This document shows, one piece after another, positions 16,003 to 50,312 of a DNA stretch of 64,000 bases. Each line of letters starts with the position of its first letter. Within the stretch, counting starts at the first letter, position 1. A program made the position numbers and the translations under genes. Origin of the DNA: a bacterium (lineage in GTDB: Bacteria; Patescibacteriota; JABMPQ01; JBDRIV01); NCBI GenBank assembly GCA_043815505.1, contig JBDRIV010000003.1:62239-126238 (forward strand), written 5' to 3'. The notes beneath the pieces were generated by a model, which saw only the letters and a program-made list of their open reading frames with translations, was not told the origin of the DNA and searched no databases.

Positions 16003-17031
16003 TTATTCTTTTTCTTTATATTCAAATCCCAAATGTTCATAAGCTCTTTTTGTGGCCTCGCGACCACGCGGAGTACGATTTAGAAATCCCAGCTGCAAAA
16101 GATATGGTTCGTAAACATCAACAATGGTATCTTCTTCTTCTGAGGTGGCAGCCGAAAGTGTTTTTATTCCCACCGGCTTACCTTCAAATTTATCAATTAA
16201 GGTTTTAAGAATTCTCACATCTACATTGTCCAACCCCATCTCATCAACCTGAAGTTGTTTAAGTGCTTCTTTAGCTATTTCTTCGGTGATTTTTCCTTGG
16301 TGTTTTACTTGGGAGAAATCGCGCACGCGTTTCAGTAATCTGTTAGCAATACGTGGAGTTTTGCGAGCGCGTTTAGCAATTTCTTCTCGTCCACCTTTAT
16401 CAATTTCAATTTCAAGAATTTTAGCAGAGCGTTCAACAATTTTAGCAATGTCTGCTTCTTCGTAATAATCGAGACGATGAGTTACACCAAAACGATCACG
16501 CAATGGTGAAGACAGCATACCAATTCTGGTGGTAGCAGCCACTAAAGTGAATTTTGGTAAATCAAGTCTGACCGATCTGGCCGAGGGTCCTTTGCCAATT
16601 ACTAAATCCAAATATCCATCTTCCATGGCGGGATACAAAACTTCTTCGATAGCGCGATTCAAACGATGAATCTCGTCAATAAATAAAATGTCACCTTCTT
16701 CTAAATTGGTTAGAATTGCCCCAAGATCACCCACTCTTTCAATGGCCGGACCAGAAGTGGTGCGAATGCTAACTCCCGCTTCGTGAGCGATAATATGCGC
16801 TAAAGTTGTTTTGCCAATTCCCGGTGGTCCGTACAGTAAAACATGTTCGATTGGTTCTTTGCGTTTTTTGGCTGCTTGTAAAAATATTTGTAAATTCTGC
16901 TTAATAGAATTCTGACCAATAAAATCGGCCAATTTTTTTGGCCTTAAAGTTAGCTCAAAAACGCTGTCCTCATTTTTTTCGGCAGCGCTCACAAGGGCTT
17001 CTTTCGTTGGAACTTTTTCTTCTTCAATCAT
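16003..17031 (-). CDS. ruvB: Holliday junction DNA helicase RuvB
   Basis: 342 aa. AAA+ Walker [15 protein letters not shown] and the RuvB winged-helix C-terminus. Confidence 0.95.
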
Positions 17032-17100
17032 GCCTTAATTATAGCAAATCACCTATTTTAAGCAAAAGTTGCATTTTGCCAAAATTCTGTTATAACTTTA

Positions 17101-17220
17101 AGTGGGATGAGAAACAAGTTAGAATATTCTGCTTGGGGGTGTTTAGAACGGATACTCCAAACAAGGGGCTAACCGGAGTAATAAAAAAGGACCCCGAACA
17201 CCCTTCTCATCCCATTTTTA
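17101..17220 (+). promoter_or_regulatory. Structured 5' leader (candidate riboswitch/attenuator) ahead of a small-membrane-protein operon
   Basis: A 10-bp perfect closing stem (GGGAUGAGAA 17103-17112 with UUCUCAUCCC 17203-17212) encloses about 90 nt containing nested GC stems (GGGUGUU/AACACCC, UACUCC/GGAGUA, GGGG/CCCC). It is followed by UUUUU. A putative promoter TTGCAT-N17-ATAACT lies just upstream. Confidence 0.35.
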
Positions 17221-17262
17221 CAGTTGTGAATAGTTCTTTTTAACTGAATATAAGGAGAGAAA

Positions 17263-17451
17263 ATGATTATTCTGTTTTATGTTTTTCTAGTCCTTGTAAT
17301 TATTGCTTGTAGTTGGAGAATTGGGTTCAGTATGTACAGACTTTACCACAATGATGGTCGTCATGAAGCACTCCATATCATCCCCTACCTGGTAGTTATT
17401 ATTGCTGCTATTATCGTACTTTTTAATTTAATTGTGGCTGGGGGACAATAA
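17263..17451 (+). CDS. Small membrane protein (62 aa, 2 TM)
   Basis: Strong RBS AAGGAGAGAAA before the ATG. Two hydrophobic helices. Confidence 0.45.
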   Translation: MIILFYVFLVLVIIACSWRIGFSMYRLYHNDGRHEALHIIPYLVVIIAAIIVLFNLIVAGGQ

Positions 17452-17462
17452 AGGAGAGAAAA

Positions 17463-17867
17463 ATGATTTATGCATGGATTACGCTATCTGCTTTGTTTCT
17501 CATCTTGGGAATCTGGAGACTTATTCGCAGGGTAAATAACCTTGGTTCAAATGCATTTATCGACTCGGCTTGTTTGATTGGTTCAATGCTTGTTATAGCT
17601 GCTGCTGCGGGATTTCTTCTTGGCTTTGTGATTTTCGACCAAAGTAAGTGGTATACAGTTCTTATGATCACATCTGGAGTAGGTCTTCTTGCAACCATTG
17701 GAACGAGTTACTATTACCATCGTGAATACAAGCGTTGTGAAAATAATATGTATTTAAACTATGTTTGTGACAGAGAGATTCAGTATCAAGGTATTTCAAT
17801 AGTTCTCTTGATTATTCTTGTTATTTCAGCTGCTCTGCACTTTGAGATAATATTTACAGGAGGATAA
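17463..17867 (+). CDS. Small membrane protein (134 aa, 4 TM)
   Basis: Near-identical RBS context (AAAGGAGAGAAAAATG) to the preceding gene. Four hydrophobic helices. Confidence 0.5.
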   Translation: MIYAWITLSALFLILGIWRLIRRVNNLGSNAFIDSACLIGSMLVIAAAAGFLLGFVIFDQSKWYTVLMITSGVGLLATIGTSYYYHREYKRCENNMYLNYVCDREIQYQGISIVLLIILVISAALHFEIIFTGG

Positions 17868-18179
17868 TATGTTAAACATATTCTGTGTAAATGTATTTGT
17901 GATTTTTGTTTGAGGCATGATTCTTTCGATTGTTTTTGCCTTGATCTTTAAAAGAAGAGCTGAGAACTTTGTCTGTGTTGACAAAATGCCTAGAGCCAAC
18001 AAAACTGCACTCAACAGAATTATAAAAAAATTGTCCTTTATGGATTAGCATCCGCTTTTGATCCTTTCACTTCTTACAATCTGGGCATGGATGAAGTTTC
18101 CATGATCCAAAACCTATTGATTGAAAACGTCAGGTTTCAACTTGGCGTTTTTTTATTTTACCCCGAGCTGACTAAGGAC

Positions 18180-18208
18180 TTGACAAATATATAAGCATCT
18201 GCTACAAT
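18180..18208 (+). promoter_or_regulatory. Consensus sigma70 promoter TTGACA-N17-TACAAT
   Basis: Perfect -35 and near-perfect -10 with 17-nt spacing. No protein-coding ORF downstream on this strand. Confidence 0.5.
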
Positions 18209-18259
18209 GACATGTTTTGCTGATTTAATGAATTTACGATGAGCCCGCAGGCGAATCGG

Positions 18260-18363
18260 CAACAAAAAACTGTAGACGACTAAGAAGTTTTCTAGTAAGG
18301 ATTCGTGAGGACCTCCTCTTCACATTTCCTTCTAAATTGCTTCTTGTCTACAGTTTTTTGTTG
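18260..18363 (+). ncRNA. Candidate small RNA or structured element: 18-bp perfect inverted repeat enclosing about 68 nt
   Basis: CAACAAAAAACTGTAGAC (18260-18277) pairs perfectly with GTCTACAGTTTTTTGTTG (18346-18363). Lies downstream of the consensus promoter. Confidence 0.3.
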
Positions 18364-18374
18364 GTTCGATTGAA

Positions 18375-18420
18375 CTCGCCACAAGTGGTTCTACAAGCTC
18401 GCCACAAGTGGTTCTACAAG
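18375..18420. repeat. Tandem direct repeat, 2 x 23 bp (CTCGCCACAAGTGGTTCTACAAG)
   Basis: Two perfect adjacent copies. Each contains the dyad CCACAAGTGG. Confidence 0.7.
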
Positions 18421-41602: not shown

Positions 41603-41657
41603 TTGGCCTATAGCATATAGCTAATGGCTTATGGAATGCCTTTTACTAGTGACTTGT

Positions 41658-41701
41658 CCAGCCCCAGTTTTTTATTCCAAAAACTGGGGCTGGGGTTTTT
41701 T
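41658..41701 (+). terminator. Strong rho-independent terminator after pilB
   Basis: 14-15-bp stem (CCAGCCCCAGTTTTT / AAAACTGGGGCTGG) followed by GGTTTTTT. Confidence 0.7.
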
Positions 41702-42313
41702 GATATAAAAAGGGGGGGGCGCTATTCTTCTTCCCGAATGGGAAAAATTTGGCGCCCCCGCAGGCTAGTCGCAGACGTGTGGGTCCCAGTGGCTCATAGT
41801 GTGTCCTCACGGCGATTTATGGTGCTTGCGCGACGAGTCGTCGTGTTAGCGGCGTAAGCACCTGTTCCAGGATTGATGTTGCCAGTCAGCAGGCCGACTG
41901 GCTTCACACTTGGACGGTAGGAGTGAATAGAAGGTTTTGTCCATTTCATCACTGGACCGATTATCGCACTCTCGAAATACCGCCTCTCTGGTACGATTAA
42001 TTTATACCAAAACGATTTTTTCTTGTCAATAAAAATAGGGCAACTTCTGGTTAGACCATTAGTTGCCTTGTATATTTTTTCTTGTCACAACTTTTGAAAT
42101 ATTATTTTATAAAATCCTCCTTCTATGAATGGTTTAGCTGTCCTCACATTGCAAACGAAATAATTTCGGGGCGCCGGACGACTCTGTTGCAGTAGAGGCC
42201 GTCCGGGCACCCACGGGACCATGATAAATGAGAAGCTTTGCCAAAAGGCCGTTTTGACAATCATTTACCACAGACCACAGTTGAAATATTTTTATCCTAA
42301 GAGATTGTTTGTG

Positions 42314-42358
42314 TCAATAAAAAACCGCCAGTGACTTATTTTGATAAGTTTGGCGGTT
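42314..42358 (-). terminator. Minus-strand terminator downstream of the 42379..42651 ORF
   Basis: AACCGCCA-N20-TGGCGGTT stem, followed on the minus strand by TTTTTTATT. Confidence 0.45.
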
Positions 42359-42378
42359 GAGAGATAGGTGATAAAATT

Positions 42379-42651
42379 CTACCACCAGATAAGACTGTCT
42401 CTCTCCTTTCTGTCCTGGCGACTGTCTCTTTTCTCAGAACGGGAACGTTCAACCTGCTGGAACGCGCTTTTGCCAGGGCCGCCGTTGTTTATGATCTCCT
42501 CGCCGTTGACGTCGTAGAGCACGTCGTGAATCCACTGGGTCGGACCGGTGACACCGAACTGGGCGATGGCCTGTTTGCGCACCTTCTTGCGCTTACGTAT
42601 GGCAACCATATTCTTTTTTTTATCCCTTTTCACCCTTTTTCTCGCCATCAC
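42379..42651 (-). CDS. Hypothetical small basic protein, GC-rich (about 55% GC)
   Basis: 90 aa. RBS GGAGG 9 nt upstream. N-terminus extremely Lys/Arg-rich. Own terminator downstream. No family recognised. Confidence 0.35.
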   Translation of the reverse strand: MMARKRVKRDKKKNMVAIRKRKKVRKQAIAQFGVTGPTQWIHDVLYDVNGEEIINNGGPGKSAFQQVERSRSEKRDSRQDRKERDSLIWW

Positions 42652-48188: not shown

Positions 48189-48716
48189 ATGCTACTAGTT
48201 AGCGAAGAAATATTAAAGAGGCCTATATTAGATGAATCCACTAAAGAAGAAATAGGTGGATGTGAACAGGTATTGCTCGATTTCGATACCGGCAAAGTAA
48301 AAGCACTGCTTATAAAGAAACGTGCTTTTTTTGAATATTATTTTGTAACGCCGATGCATATTTCGGCTTGTCATACTGGTGGCACCGAAGTTGATACCGC
48401 TGAAATTTGGTCCCTTACTTCTGATGAAAAATTAAAAAAACAGGTTGACTCTTACCAATTTCTAATTGGTGCTTTGGTAAAATCAGAATCGGGAGCACCA
48501 CTTGGTATGGTAGATGAATTTTCCGTGCACTTAACTTATTGGGATTTGCGCAAAATATTTGTCGGCCCCAAAATGGGTTTGAATATTATGGTTAAACAAT
48601 TTATTGTTGACCATAAACAAATTGTTTCTCTAAGCCCAGAAGAAGTTATTGTTAAAGACTCTTCCCTACCCGTTGAAGAAAAAGGCAAACTACCTGAAGC
48701 CGCACCAAGCGCTTAA
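48189..48716 (+). CDS. PRC-barrel-like domain protein (two tandem barrels)
   Basis: 175 aa. Pattern ILKRPILDESTKEEIGGCEQVLLDFDTGKVKALLIKK resembles PRC barrels. Confidence 0.35.
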   Translation: MLLVSEEILKRPILDESTKEEIGGCEQVLLDFDTGKVKALLIKKRAFFEYYFVTPMHISACHTGGTEVDTAEIWSLTSDEKLKKQVDSYQFLIGALVKSESGAPLGMVDEFSVHLTYWDLRKIFVGPKMGLNIMVKQFIVDHKQIVSLSPEEVIVKDSSLPVEEKGKLPEAAPSA

Positions 48717-48726
48717 ATTTAAGAAA

Positions 48727-48766
48727 CCCCGCCCCAGTTTTCTATAAACTGGAGCGGGGCATTTTT
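48727..48766 (+). terminator. Rho-independent terminator ending the rpmH-rnpA-yidD-yidC-khpB operon
   Basis: 13-bp stem CCCCGCCCCAGTT/AACTGGAGCGGGG (1 mismatch) followed by a T-run. Confidence 0.6.
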
Positions 48767-48830
48767 GTTTTATGCGGCTTTTGTGTTAATGATTAGATCG
48801 GACTGACCAAAAAGTCAGTCAGTCTAACCA

Positions 48831-50312
48831 CTAATACATCTTGGCCACATTTACTTCGCTGTAATAATATTTCAATATTTTTTTATATTTTTTACCTGCT
48901 TCAGCCATTTTCAAAGCTCCGCAAGCACTCATCCCCACACCATGTCCGAGCATTTCGTTTTGACCACAAACTGAATCATCTACTCCTTTAAGCCAAGGCT
49001 TTTTAGAACCACCCCAAACTTCTGTCCAAGAACGAGTGCGACCATCACTATGTGAAAAATATGGCGTCACAACCACATCACCTTTGTATTTAACCATTTC
49101 GCCAAGTGTAGTTTTGGCATTGGTGGAAATATTGGGTGTCATAAATTCATAAGTCACACCTTTATAAACCTGATCGTAATAATTATCAATGTTGTAATTT
49201 TTACTGGCATGCTTACTATCTTGTGATAGTAAAATATAGGCGTAAGTTCTTTCGACCACTGACAAAGCTTTTTGAAACTGGGCATGGGAATTATTAGAAG
49301 TTTCAGCCAGTCCTCTAATATAATGTTCGAGCGGAAGTTCGTTAATAACTTGCATTCTTTCGTTTTCGCCAAACAACATGCGCACTTCTAAATTGCCGTG
49401 GTAACGATTGTAATTAAATGATGGATTCCAATTAGGGCGATCTTCATAATTTACAATTTGCATTACTGCTCCATTTTTGGGAATGAAGCGCGGAAAATCT
49501 TTAGTAACTTTTTGCCAACCTTGAGGATTGTAAATTCCTTTTACACTTGTAGCCGGAGCACTCAAAGTATATTCGCCGTTTTTATAAGACACTGTGATTA
49601 TTTCGTCTTCATGATAAAGCGCTACCAAATTTCCATAATAATCTCTGATTTCAAATGCACCATCAGAAGAAACTTCCACCGGATTTATTTCCGCTAGAAT
49701 TCCCACACGCAAAATGGGACCACCATTTTTAGGAAGAGTGGGAACTTCATTTTTATAAACTTCTATATTAAAAGAAACGCCGCTACCTTCAATCCACTCA
49801 CGCCATTCGGAAACAAGTTGAAAACATTCTTTGTATTTGCCCGGCTTATAAGGAGCTTTTAAAGTAATGTAAAATCGCGTGACATTACCAGGAGATATTT
49901 CCCGATCATACATGCGATTTGGTCTTTTGTCATAACGTTCGTTGTCTTTGTCCCAGTCGGCTGCTTGAAAGGGACTGATGCGATCACGCGGCTCAGCGGT
50001 GTTCATGGCAATAAATTCTCTATCACCAAAATTGTACCAAGTCTTTTTTCCCACATTTTTATAATCTACCCAAACTCTAACTTCTTCTCCTTCTTTTATA
50101 CGCAAATCGGTGTGGCTAACACCAACAATTTCAGTTTTATAATCTGGCTTACCAATTTTTTTCATAGCACTAATTAAACTTGAGGAATAGTTAGCATTAT
50201 ATTTTTCTTCCACTACTTCGGATAGATAATAAGCCAGAGGCAAAAAAAACAGCAAGGCGAGAGCCAAGATTATTAGAGTTTTGGCATATTTTCTGCTTGT
50301 TTGTAGAGACAT
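48831..50312 (-). CDS. SpoIID/LytB-domain protein (membrane-anchored)
   Basis: 493 aa. N-terminal TM helix. C-terminal GHGVGMSACGALKMAEAGKKYKKILKYYY matches the SpoIID/LytB signature. Confidence 0.6.
   Translation of the reverse strand: MSLQTSRKYAKTLIILALALLFFLPLAYYLSEVVEEKYNANYSSSLISAMKKIGKPDYKTEIVGVSHTDLRIKEGEEVRVWVDYKNVGKKTWYNFGDREFIAMNTAEPRDRISPFQAADWDKDNERYDKRPNRMYDREISPGNVTRFYITLKAPYKPGKYKECFQLVSEWREWIEGSGVSFNIEVYKNEVPTLPKNGGPILRVGILAEINPVEVSSDGAFEIRDYYGNLVALYHEDEIITVSYKNGEYTLSAPATSVKGIYNPQGWQKVTKDFPRFIPKNGAVMQIVNYEDRPNWNPSFNYNRYHGNLEVRMLFGENERMQVINELPLEHYIRGLAETSNNSHAQFQKALSVVERTYAYILLSQDSKHASKNYNIDNYYDQVYKGVTYEFMTPNISTNAKTTLGEMVKYKGDVVVTPYFSHSDGRTRSWTEVWGGSKKPWLKGVDDSVCGQNEMLGHGVGMSACGALKMAEAGKKYKKILKYYYSEVNVAKMY

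Follow-up and report, generated by a model that had tools for sequence, protein, structure and literature searches.

A structured 5′ leader RNA as a candidate attenuator of an ORFan operon for small hydrophobic proteins in an uncultivated member of Patescibacteria

The stretch of DNA analysed here (hereafter the window) comprises 64,000 nucleotides of contig JBDRIV010000003.1 from assembly GCA_043815505.1, which derives from an uncultivated member of Patescibacteria (candidate phyla radiation, CPR) and is AT-rich, with a GC content of 36%. Within it, a 231-bp spacer separates two divergent units, ruvB on the minus strand and three small open reading frames (ORFs) on the plus strand, and carries a structured element of ~118 nt on the plus strand. 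We tentatively favour, with a confidence that falls somewhat short of even, the reading of this element as a lineage-specific, cis-acting 5′ leader or attenuator of the downstream operon, whose small hydrophobic proteins are ORFans. An earlier inspection of the same DNA (the sequence-only reading) had described a structured leader behind a putative promoter, and this was borne out in part: the element is a discrete, structured plus-strand RNA between the divergent genes, extending from the predicted transcription start to a U-run. In its presumed mode of action, the element most resembles a terminator-type 5′ leader or attenuator, and it appears to belong to no described family.

In the predicted fold, three helices (P1, P2 and P3) meet in a tight three-way junction, with one unpaired base each between P1 and P2 and between P2 and P3, and the sequence UUUUU follows directly. 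The closing helix P1 is built from the arms 17100–17113 (AAGTGGGATGAGAA) and 17204–17217 (TTCTCATCCCATTT), which are complementary at 13 of 14 positions, the remaining one being a G·U pair. It comprises 11 contiguous Watson–Crick pairs (17103–17113 with 17204–17214), the G·U pair and two A–U pairs that reach into the U-run, with a duplex energy of −20.1 kcal/mol, or −21.0 kcal/mol with longer flanks. Ten of its pairs reach probabilities of 0.93–1.0 in the Boltzmann ensemble, and the innermost one (17113/17204) reaches 0.38. The 5′ strand (AAGUGGGAUGAGAA, 17100–17113, inverted repeat I2) is purine-rich and resembles a ribosome-binding site, and the 3′ strand (UUCUCAUCCCA, 17204–17219), which continues into UUUUU at 17215–17219, has the appearance of a terminator end and of an anti-ribosome-binding site. 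The sequence-only reading had placed here a 10-bp perfect stem with UUUUU immediately after it; stem and U-run are both present, except that the 3′ arm had been set at 17203–17212, ~2 nt off, as the partner of 17103–17112 is 17205–17214.

Helix P2 is a hairpin (CAAGUUAGAAUAUUCUGCUUG, 17115–17135) that occurs in every low-energy structure and had been overlooked in that first inspection. Its pairing probabilities are 0.86–1.0, save for an either/or U·G pair, in which 17119 or 17120 pairs with G17131. Helix P3 joins a 5′ strand at 17137–17144 (GGGUGUUU, inverted repeat I6) to a 3′ strand at 17196–17203 (GAACACCC), assigned from pairing probabilities and the inverted repeat, and has a pairing probability of ~0.75, with 0.59 for the terminal U·G pair. 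The 51-nt interior of P3 is ill-defined in the thermodynamic ensemble, with pairing probabilities of at most 0.5. It may contain the hairpin S1 (17153–17180, inverted repeat I12), in which UACUCC (17153–58) pairs with GGAGUA (17175–80) around a 16-nt loop that holds GGGG (17165–68); UACUCC has an alternative partner in GGGGcUA (17165–71), and each of these pairings has a probability of at most 0.5. An A-rich segment (AUAAAAAAGGA), with its run at 17181–17189, and then CCCC (17192–95) complete the interior (17181–17195), as read from the sequence, the crossing of the helices having been checked by coordinates. GGGG (17165–68) and CCCC (17192–95) are interleaved with TACTCC/GGAGTA and could thus form either an H-type pseudoknot or mutually exclusive helices. 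If the pseudoknot forms, CCCC-G-AACACCC would be continuous, which would place the helix S2 in a stack with P3 and lead the A-rich loop AUAAAAAAGGA across S1. The A-rich segment and the helices GGGTGTT/AACACCC (17137–17143/17197–17203), TACTCC/GGAGTA (17153–17158/17175–17180) and GGGG/CCCC had all been pointed out previously and do exist; the helices had been described as nested, which does not apply to GGGG/CCCC, since it crosses TACTCC/GGAGTA.

The element is preceded by a putative extended −10 promoter (17069–17096, plus strand) composed of TTGCAT (17069–74), a 16-nt spacer, TG (17088–89) and TATAAC (17091–96), which is similar to the TGnTAnAAT promoters found at other genes of the window. 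The transcription start is accordingly predicted from the sequence at ~17101–17104, at the first bases of P1. As judged by eye from the letters, P1 begins 4–8 nt downstream of the −10 box and extends up to UUUUU. As P1 starts at the predicted +1 position, no unpaired tail would protrude at the 5′ end of the RNA. Of all 115-nt windows in the spacer between ruvB and the operon, the one with the highest GC content starts exactly at 17102, so the GC peak coincides with P1 to the base, which was counted in favour of the leader reading. Since the locus lies between divergent genes, with no upstream gene in need of a terminator, the element can act only on its own transcript. A perfect palindrome (GCAAAAGTTGCATTTTGC, 17062–17079), unique in the window, overlaps the −35 box of the ruvB promoter as well as that of the divergent leader promoter; it was considered as a shared operator and set aside, given that its frequency is within chance expectation.

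The positions of the helices relative to the promoter, the U-run and the ORFs are direct observations; from them, we infer transcription of the element, termination and any regulation, along the following lines. Transcription would start at ~17101–17104 from the modest extended −10 promoter, the nascent RNA would fold P2 and then P3, and the 5′ end would close P1 once 17204–17217 has emerged. P1 and the short U-tract could then stop a fraction of the transcripts, in the manner of a weak intrinsic terminator (attenuator), and P1 would furnish the read-through mRNA with a fully paired, protected 5′ end. Because P1 starts at the first transcribed bases and runs into the U-tract, it probably acts as both an attenuator and a 5′ cap. 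Expression of potentially membrane-damaging peptides would be held low. When folding was simulated at growing transcript length, P2 formed first, followed by a transient hairpin (17136–44 with 17150–58) that competes with P3, by P3 itself and then by P1 once its 3′ strand emerged. No helix competing with P1, and thus no conventional antiterminator, appeared in this co-transcriptional simulation.

The postulated capping role recalls the leaders of ompA (5′ untranslated region, UTR) and of Bacillus subtilis aprE and ermC, in which a helix at or near the first transcribed base leaves no single-stranded tail for 5′-end-dependent RNases. Those stabilising leaders are simple hairpins, whereas the present element is a branched domain of 118 nt that ends in a U-run.

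A further layer of control could stem from a network of purine-rich and pyrimidine-rich segments, which might also gate translation. Its purine-rich members would be the P1 5′ strand, the A-rich run and two ribosome-binding sites, and its pyrimidine-rich members the P1 3′ strand, 17233–41 and 17493–17504. The complementarities themselves are plainly present. The P1 5′ strand (GGGAUGAGAAA) resembles the ribosome-binding sites of the small ORFs, and the P1 3′ strand can instead pair with the ribosome-binding site GGAGAGAA through 8 bp with one bulge (−9.2 kcal/mol). A U-rich segment (GUUCUUUUU, 17233–17241, inverted repeat I5) can pair either with the ribosome-binding site, which is the choice of the minimum-free-energy (MFE) fold (−6.2 kcal/mol), or with the A-rich run (−8.1 kcal/mol). 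Lastly, UUGUUUCUCAUC (17493–17504, inverted repeat I7), within the 134-aa ORF of the operon, is a perfect 12-nt complement of part of the P1 5′ strand, 17106–17117 (GATGAGAAACAA), which would thus pair 31–42 nt past the ATG of that ORF. This long-range pairing grows to 15 bp with G·U pairs (17490–17504) and amounts to −19.2 kcal/mol, compared with −21.0 kcal/mol for P1; the probability of finding at least 12 complementary nucleotides between element and operon by chance is 0.010. The MFE fold of the full-length RNA retains P1 and not the long-range pairing.

The stability of the element stands out from that of shuffled sequences. Its exact MFE is −42.8 kcal/mol (z = −4.36), and 0 of 200 dinucleotide shuffles were equally stable; a 171-nt region yielded z = −3.27, and an unbiased 120-nt sliding scan of both strands of the window yielded z = −3.5 for the element. 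That scan delivered 15 structured loci with z ≤ −3.4, 12 of which are intergenic, and 58 of the 62 structured windows fall in intergenic DNA, compared with an intergenic share of 21%. The structure is therefore real and probably not accidental, yet it is not outstanding.

Several points weigh against the attenuator reading and are gathered here. The element ranks 13th of the 15 structured loci, most of the stronger ones being plain long hairpins at gene 3′ ends. The reverse strand is nearly as stable (z = −3.95), so folding energy alone does not discriminate between the strands, and the assignment to the plus strand relies on context, namely the promoter, the U-run, three G·U pairs and the downstream ORFs. 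The promoter, claimed by the sequence-only reading at 17069–17097, is plausible and not strong: it is sub-consensus, with a 3/6 match in the −35 box and a −10 box devoid of the conserved final T, and it was not listed by a promoter scan. As a terminator, the P1 stem (13–14 bp, −20 to −21 kcal/mol) encloses a branched insert of 90 nt (P2 and P3) instead of a loop of 3–8 nt, which is why it goes unreported in the terminator scan. Within the tract 17215–17219, the first U can pair with G17102, which leaves four free uridines before ACAGUUGUG; clear terminators in the window carry U6–U7, as against the 4–5 U of the element. Given the short U-tract and the enclosed 90-nt insert, any termination is likely to be partial and dependent on prior folding of P2 and P3. 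Moreover, no homologous leader was detected by blastn, nhmmer or a single-sequence covariance model (R1) in 81 related loci, which comprised 80 ruvB loci from GTDB species plus one NCBI contig and, together with the window, totalled 576 kb. In the absence of any homologue, neither covariation nor conservation backs any of the helices.

Other searches gave a consistent picture. Rfam 15 (4227 covariance models) returned no match at the gathering threshold over the whole window, which agrees with the earlier suggestion of an undescribed RNA, as the scan was empty for all the riboswitch classes listed in the sequence-only reading. At E ≤ 10 with relaxed filters, the region 16900–17400 gave only three matches, all at noise level, namely snoR99 (19.5 bits; threshold 41), U7 (12.5 bits; threshold 34) and, in minus-strand orientation, the L20 leader (17.2 bits; threshold 58.7), and at E ≤ 1 the whole window gave two noise matches, both away from the element. 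No tRNA or tmRNA was found in the window. Short-word blastn and model R1 retrieved the element only, with no second copy in the window. Two metagenome pattern scans (the pseudoknot core with S1 free, and the exact S1-L3-S2 segment) and two viral pattern scans yielded 0 matches each, and blastn against phages and plasmids yielded chance matches only.

The operon behind the leader begins with a ribosome-binding site, AAGGAGAG (17252–59), and a 62-aa ORF (17263–17451, plus strand, ATG at 17263) with two predicted transmembrane helices; the strength of this site had been correctly noted in the first inspection. The ORF has a coding-like score of +0.28 per codon, and neither a homologue nor a family was found for it in protein collections, Pfam, NCBIfam or PHROGs; the searched collection does not contain the ORF itself either. 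There follows a 134-aa ORF (17463–17867) with the ribosome-binding site GGAGAG (17453–58), which has a coding-like score of +0.22 per codon and is predicted to encode a four-helix membrane protein. Neither a collection of 5.8 billion clusters nor 1.84 billion representatives, scanned exhaustively with HMMER, contained any match to this protein other than itself; viral relatives were likewise not found, and Pfam, NCBIfam and PHROGs gave no assignment. Its low-confidence AlphaFold model consists of four long helices in a generic four-helix bundle, with a predicted local distance difference test (pLDDT) score of 67, and a Foldseek search with this model found no match in the PDB at E < 0.6. On the strength of these sequence comparisons, the 134-aa protein qualifies as a true ORFan.

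A third small hydrophobic ORF (17869–18048, plus strand) has the ribosome-binding site AGGAGGA and is interrupted by an in-frame TGA at 17911, after which it resumes as ORF 17917–18048. As TGA serves as a normal stop codon here (9 of 47 genes), the interruption reflects either a nonsense mutation of recent origin or two distinct frames, a 14-aa peptide and, behind it, an ORF of 43 aa. All three downstream ORFs score as coding, on a scale on which in-frame segments average 0.46 (standard deviation 0.24) and off-frame segments about −0.96 to −0.97. Each is equipped with a strong ribosome-binding site (AAGGAGAG twice and AGGAGGA once), even though the genome rarely uses such sites. Coding scores and sites taken together suggest a special, probably tightly controlled, expression unit. 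The operon ends at a conventional intrinsic terminator (18123–18152, plus strand), with a 13-bp stem followed by U7.

Most genes in the window have neither a leader nor a ribosome-binding site; strong sites are limited to a few genes, among which are all three of the small ORFs that follow the leader. TGnTAnAAT is found exactly 6 nt upstream of the ATG at ruvB (17038–17046) and at the genes at 895, 58310 and 60794, a recurrent arrangement (TGnTAnAAT-N6-ATG) that implies widespread leaderless mRNAs in this genome.

Of the competing explanations, the one that survives best, doubtful as it is, ascribes no dedicated function to the element, whose stable fold would have arisen by chance in young DNA specific to the lineage and might be a remnant of the origin of the ORFan island. 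The near-equal stability of both strands, the modest rank among the structured loci, and the occurrence as a singleton with ORFan neighbours would all be expected under it, as would our estimate that ~2 perfect inverted repeats of at least 11 bp within 150 nt arise per 64 kb. It accounts poorly, however, for the coincidence within a few bases of the promoter, P1 start, P1 end, U-run and GC peak, for the shuffling result, for the extra 12-nt complementarity (p ~0.01) and for the strong enrichment of structured windows in intergenic DNA.

A less probable explanation invokes a folding programme of the type found in type I toxin mRNAs. Such mRNAs, exemplified by hok/Sok, tisB/IstR and aapA1/IsoA1, have 5′ metastable structures and long-distance interactions. 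Here, the 5′ end would be locked either in P1 or at the site in the second ORF, and the mRNA would stay quiet until processed or refolded. The likenesses are that the downstream ORFs are small and hydrophobic, that the locus is an ORFan island, that ribosome-binding-site-like and complementary sequences recur across it and can pair with each other, and that the 5′ strand has two near-equal partners, one local (P1, −21.0 kcal/mol) and one long-range (17490–17504, −19.2 kcal/mol; p ~0.01). Unlike those toxin mRNAs, however, this one would be a multi-gene operon, with three ORFs of 62, 134 and ~59 aa in place of one peptide of <60 aa, and its long-range partner lies in the second ORF and not at the 3′ end. 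Further, no antitoxin (antisense) RNA could be identified: the minus strand has 87 promoter matches in 20 kb, compared with 65 ± 8 expected, which was called background or chance level. The full-length MFE fold keeps P1 over the long-range pairing, and the masking of ribosome-binding sites is weak (−6 to −9 kcal/mol).

Improbable to a similar or slightly greater degree is a leader-peptide attenuator, in which a ribosome on the near-leaderless AUG at 17107 would block closure of P1, so that read-through would require prompt initiation. A possible upstream ORF of 21 codons (MRNKLEYSAWGCLERILQTRG, 17107–17172, plus strand) does start 3–6 nt from the predicted transcription start and spans the P1 5′ strand, P2 and the P3 5′ strand, and the genome uses leaderless-type starts at ruvB and other genes. 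A short 5′ ORF overlapping the upstream strand of a terminator-like helix is also found in the trp, his and leu attenuators and in mycobacterial leaderless upstream-ORF attenuators. Leader-peptide attenuators, though, combine a translated upstream ORF with regulatory codons and alternative 1:2, 2:3 and 3:4 hairpins, and the present element has neither a run of regulatory codons nor a 2:3 antiterminator hairpin. The codon score of the upstream ORF (−0.26 per codon) is noncoding-like, its AUG is buried in P1 and stands 10 nt from the −10 box, compared with the 6 nt typical of the genome, and ~17% of random 21-codon frames are estimated to stay open at such AT-richness.

We grant a comparably low probability to an independent small RNA of ~118 nt that possesses a promoter and a terminator of its own, whose downstream ORFs would be expressed through leak-through, or which would exert a separate function on other transcripts. 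The promoter, closed structure and U-run do make up a self-contained unit, which the GC peak matches exactly. Against this stand the 42 nt that precede the first ORF, which are too short for another promoter, so that the operon depends on read-through, as well as the lack of a match to any known small-RNA family, of an obvious exposed seed region and of conservation of the element.

Very improbable, finally, is the ligand-controlled terminator/antiterminator of the sequence-only reading, namely a riboswitch that senses a metabolite or an ion and belongs to no class described so far, with the P3 interior as the aptamer and with ligand binding speeding or stabilising the junction so that P1 and the U-run terminate: no evidence of ligand sensing was obtained, no antiterminator competing with P1 was found, thermodynamics leave the candidate aptamer core ill-defined, and the controlled genes are ORFans with no metabolic logic. 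The element is, in addition, a singleton, with no second example in the window, the 80 related loci or the metagenome, viral, phage and plasmid searches; no homologous leader was found in the collections searched, and the lack of a conserved gene association counts against a classical riboswitch. What speaks for this explanation is that no known family accounts for the element, that the interior can form an H-type pseudoknot in which the A-rich third loop could lie in the S1 groove and S2 stacks on P3, that competition between the transient hairpin and P3 permits a kinetic switch, and that the HMP-PP riboswitch provides a precedent for an aptamer within a terminator (PMC6478431).

The latter RNA, also known as the thiS motif, is a compact uninterrupted hairpin followed by at least six uridines, with ~400 covarying representatives and a coherent gene association (PMC6478431). 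The present element shares with it a structured part inside a stem that, together with the U-run, would terminate, the lack of a separate expression platform and a possible pseudoknot; it differs in being a 118-nt three-way junction with 4–5 U, a singleton in front of ORFan genes, and devoid of an Rfam match. With the riboswitch and leader families of Rfam 15 at large, it has in common the position in the 5′ UTR, a closing P1, a U-run thereafter and pseudoknot potential, but it gave no covariance score above noise with any of their models, which include fluoride, guanidine I–IV, ZTP, c-di-GMP, Mn, glycine, SAM-II, preQ1, THF, T-box and ribosomal-protein leaders. Just as improbable is the broader proposition that the element is the first example, in Patescibacteria, of an undescribed riboswitch that responds to a ligand and is embedded in a terminator, or of another new attenuator class, controlling lineage-specific small membrane proteins; were it true, only covariance-model searches of CPR genomes would reveal further, diverged copies.

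Other RNA types were discarded on inspection. A signal recognition particle RNA would require a GGAA-tetraloop, an AGCA motif and helix-8 motifs, which are missing, and 6S RNA and RNase P are both larger than the element. The hammerhead-like GAUGAG...AAAC lies within a perfect duplex, and the helix order is unsuited to hepatitis delta virus (HDV)-like and twister ribozymes. A retron non-coding RNA was rejected because, despite terminal inverted repeats, there is no reverse-transcriptase gene nearby (the neighbours are ruvB, polA, holA, clpC, hsp20 and prsW), and an RNA thermometer because the ribosome-binding site is outside the element.

As to the relevance of the attenuator reading, no description of natural riboswitches or leaders in Patescibacteria was found in the literature, and natural cis-regulatory RNAs are essentially uncharted in this group, so a validated case would have some value. 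An attenuator in front of ORFan membrane peptides would, if validated, show how reduced genomes restrain potentially toxic, newly evolved genes. A singleton before ORFans will not surprise a specialist, and the value of this single unconserved instance lies mainly in its being a candidate, not a discovery.

Regarding the genomic setting, ruvB (16003–17031, minus strand) is the last gene of a holA-polA-269aa-ruvB run. The plus-strand unit is made up of the three small hydrophobic ORFs described above (62 aa, 17263–17451; 134 aa, 17463–17867; and the third ORF, 17869–18048), and past it, DUF3006, clpC, hsp20 and prsW are encoded on the minus strand. The closest relatives of RuvB, self aside, show 69–72% identity, as found among 185,579 species genomes and 5.8 billion protein clusters, and the best matches belong to Falkowbacteria, Buchananbacteria and metagenome-assembled genomes (MAGs) of unclassified Patescibacteria. 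Exact matches to RuvB and to the 134-aa ORF are confined to single NCBI MAG entries. The contig with the top-scoring RuvB match has another gene order, ruvC-ruvA-ruvB, and the nearest sampled relatives (~70% RuvB identity) lack the whole leader-operon locus. By these comparisons, the lineage has no close relatives among the sampled genomes, and the locus within it is an ORFan island.

Further structured or unusual sites were noted in the window. Shortly beyond the operon lies the best sigma-70-like promoter of the first 20 kb (18180–18208), consisting of TTGACA, 17 nt and TACAAT with an upstream TG. It is followed by a hairpin of ~105 nt with an 18-bp perfect base (18260–18363, z = −6.6) and by a perfect 23-nt tandem duplication (CTCGCCACAAGTGGTTCTACAAG twice, 18375–18420). 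The region 18180–18420 has no Rfam match and may represent a terminator acting in both directions or else an RNA that lacks annotation. A GC-rich stretch of ~0.7 kb (41700–42380) reaches up to 63% GC per 115 nt, compared with 36% for the genome; neither a convincing ORF nor a match to Rfam or to tRNAs was found in it, and it contains a G8 run, strong hairpins and two copies of the motif TTTTTTCTTGTCA. A TTGACA-17-TATAAA promoter precedes a 52-aa ORF on the minus strand (41794–41952). Where genes converge or end, at 48690–48860 and 41640–41700, there are GC-rich hairpins of very high stability (z down to −9.7), which probably act as bidirectional intrinsic terminators and serve as a local standard of what terminators look like in this genome.

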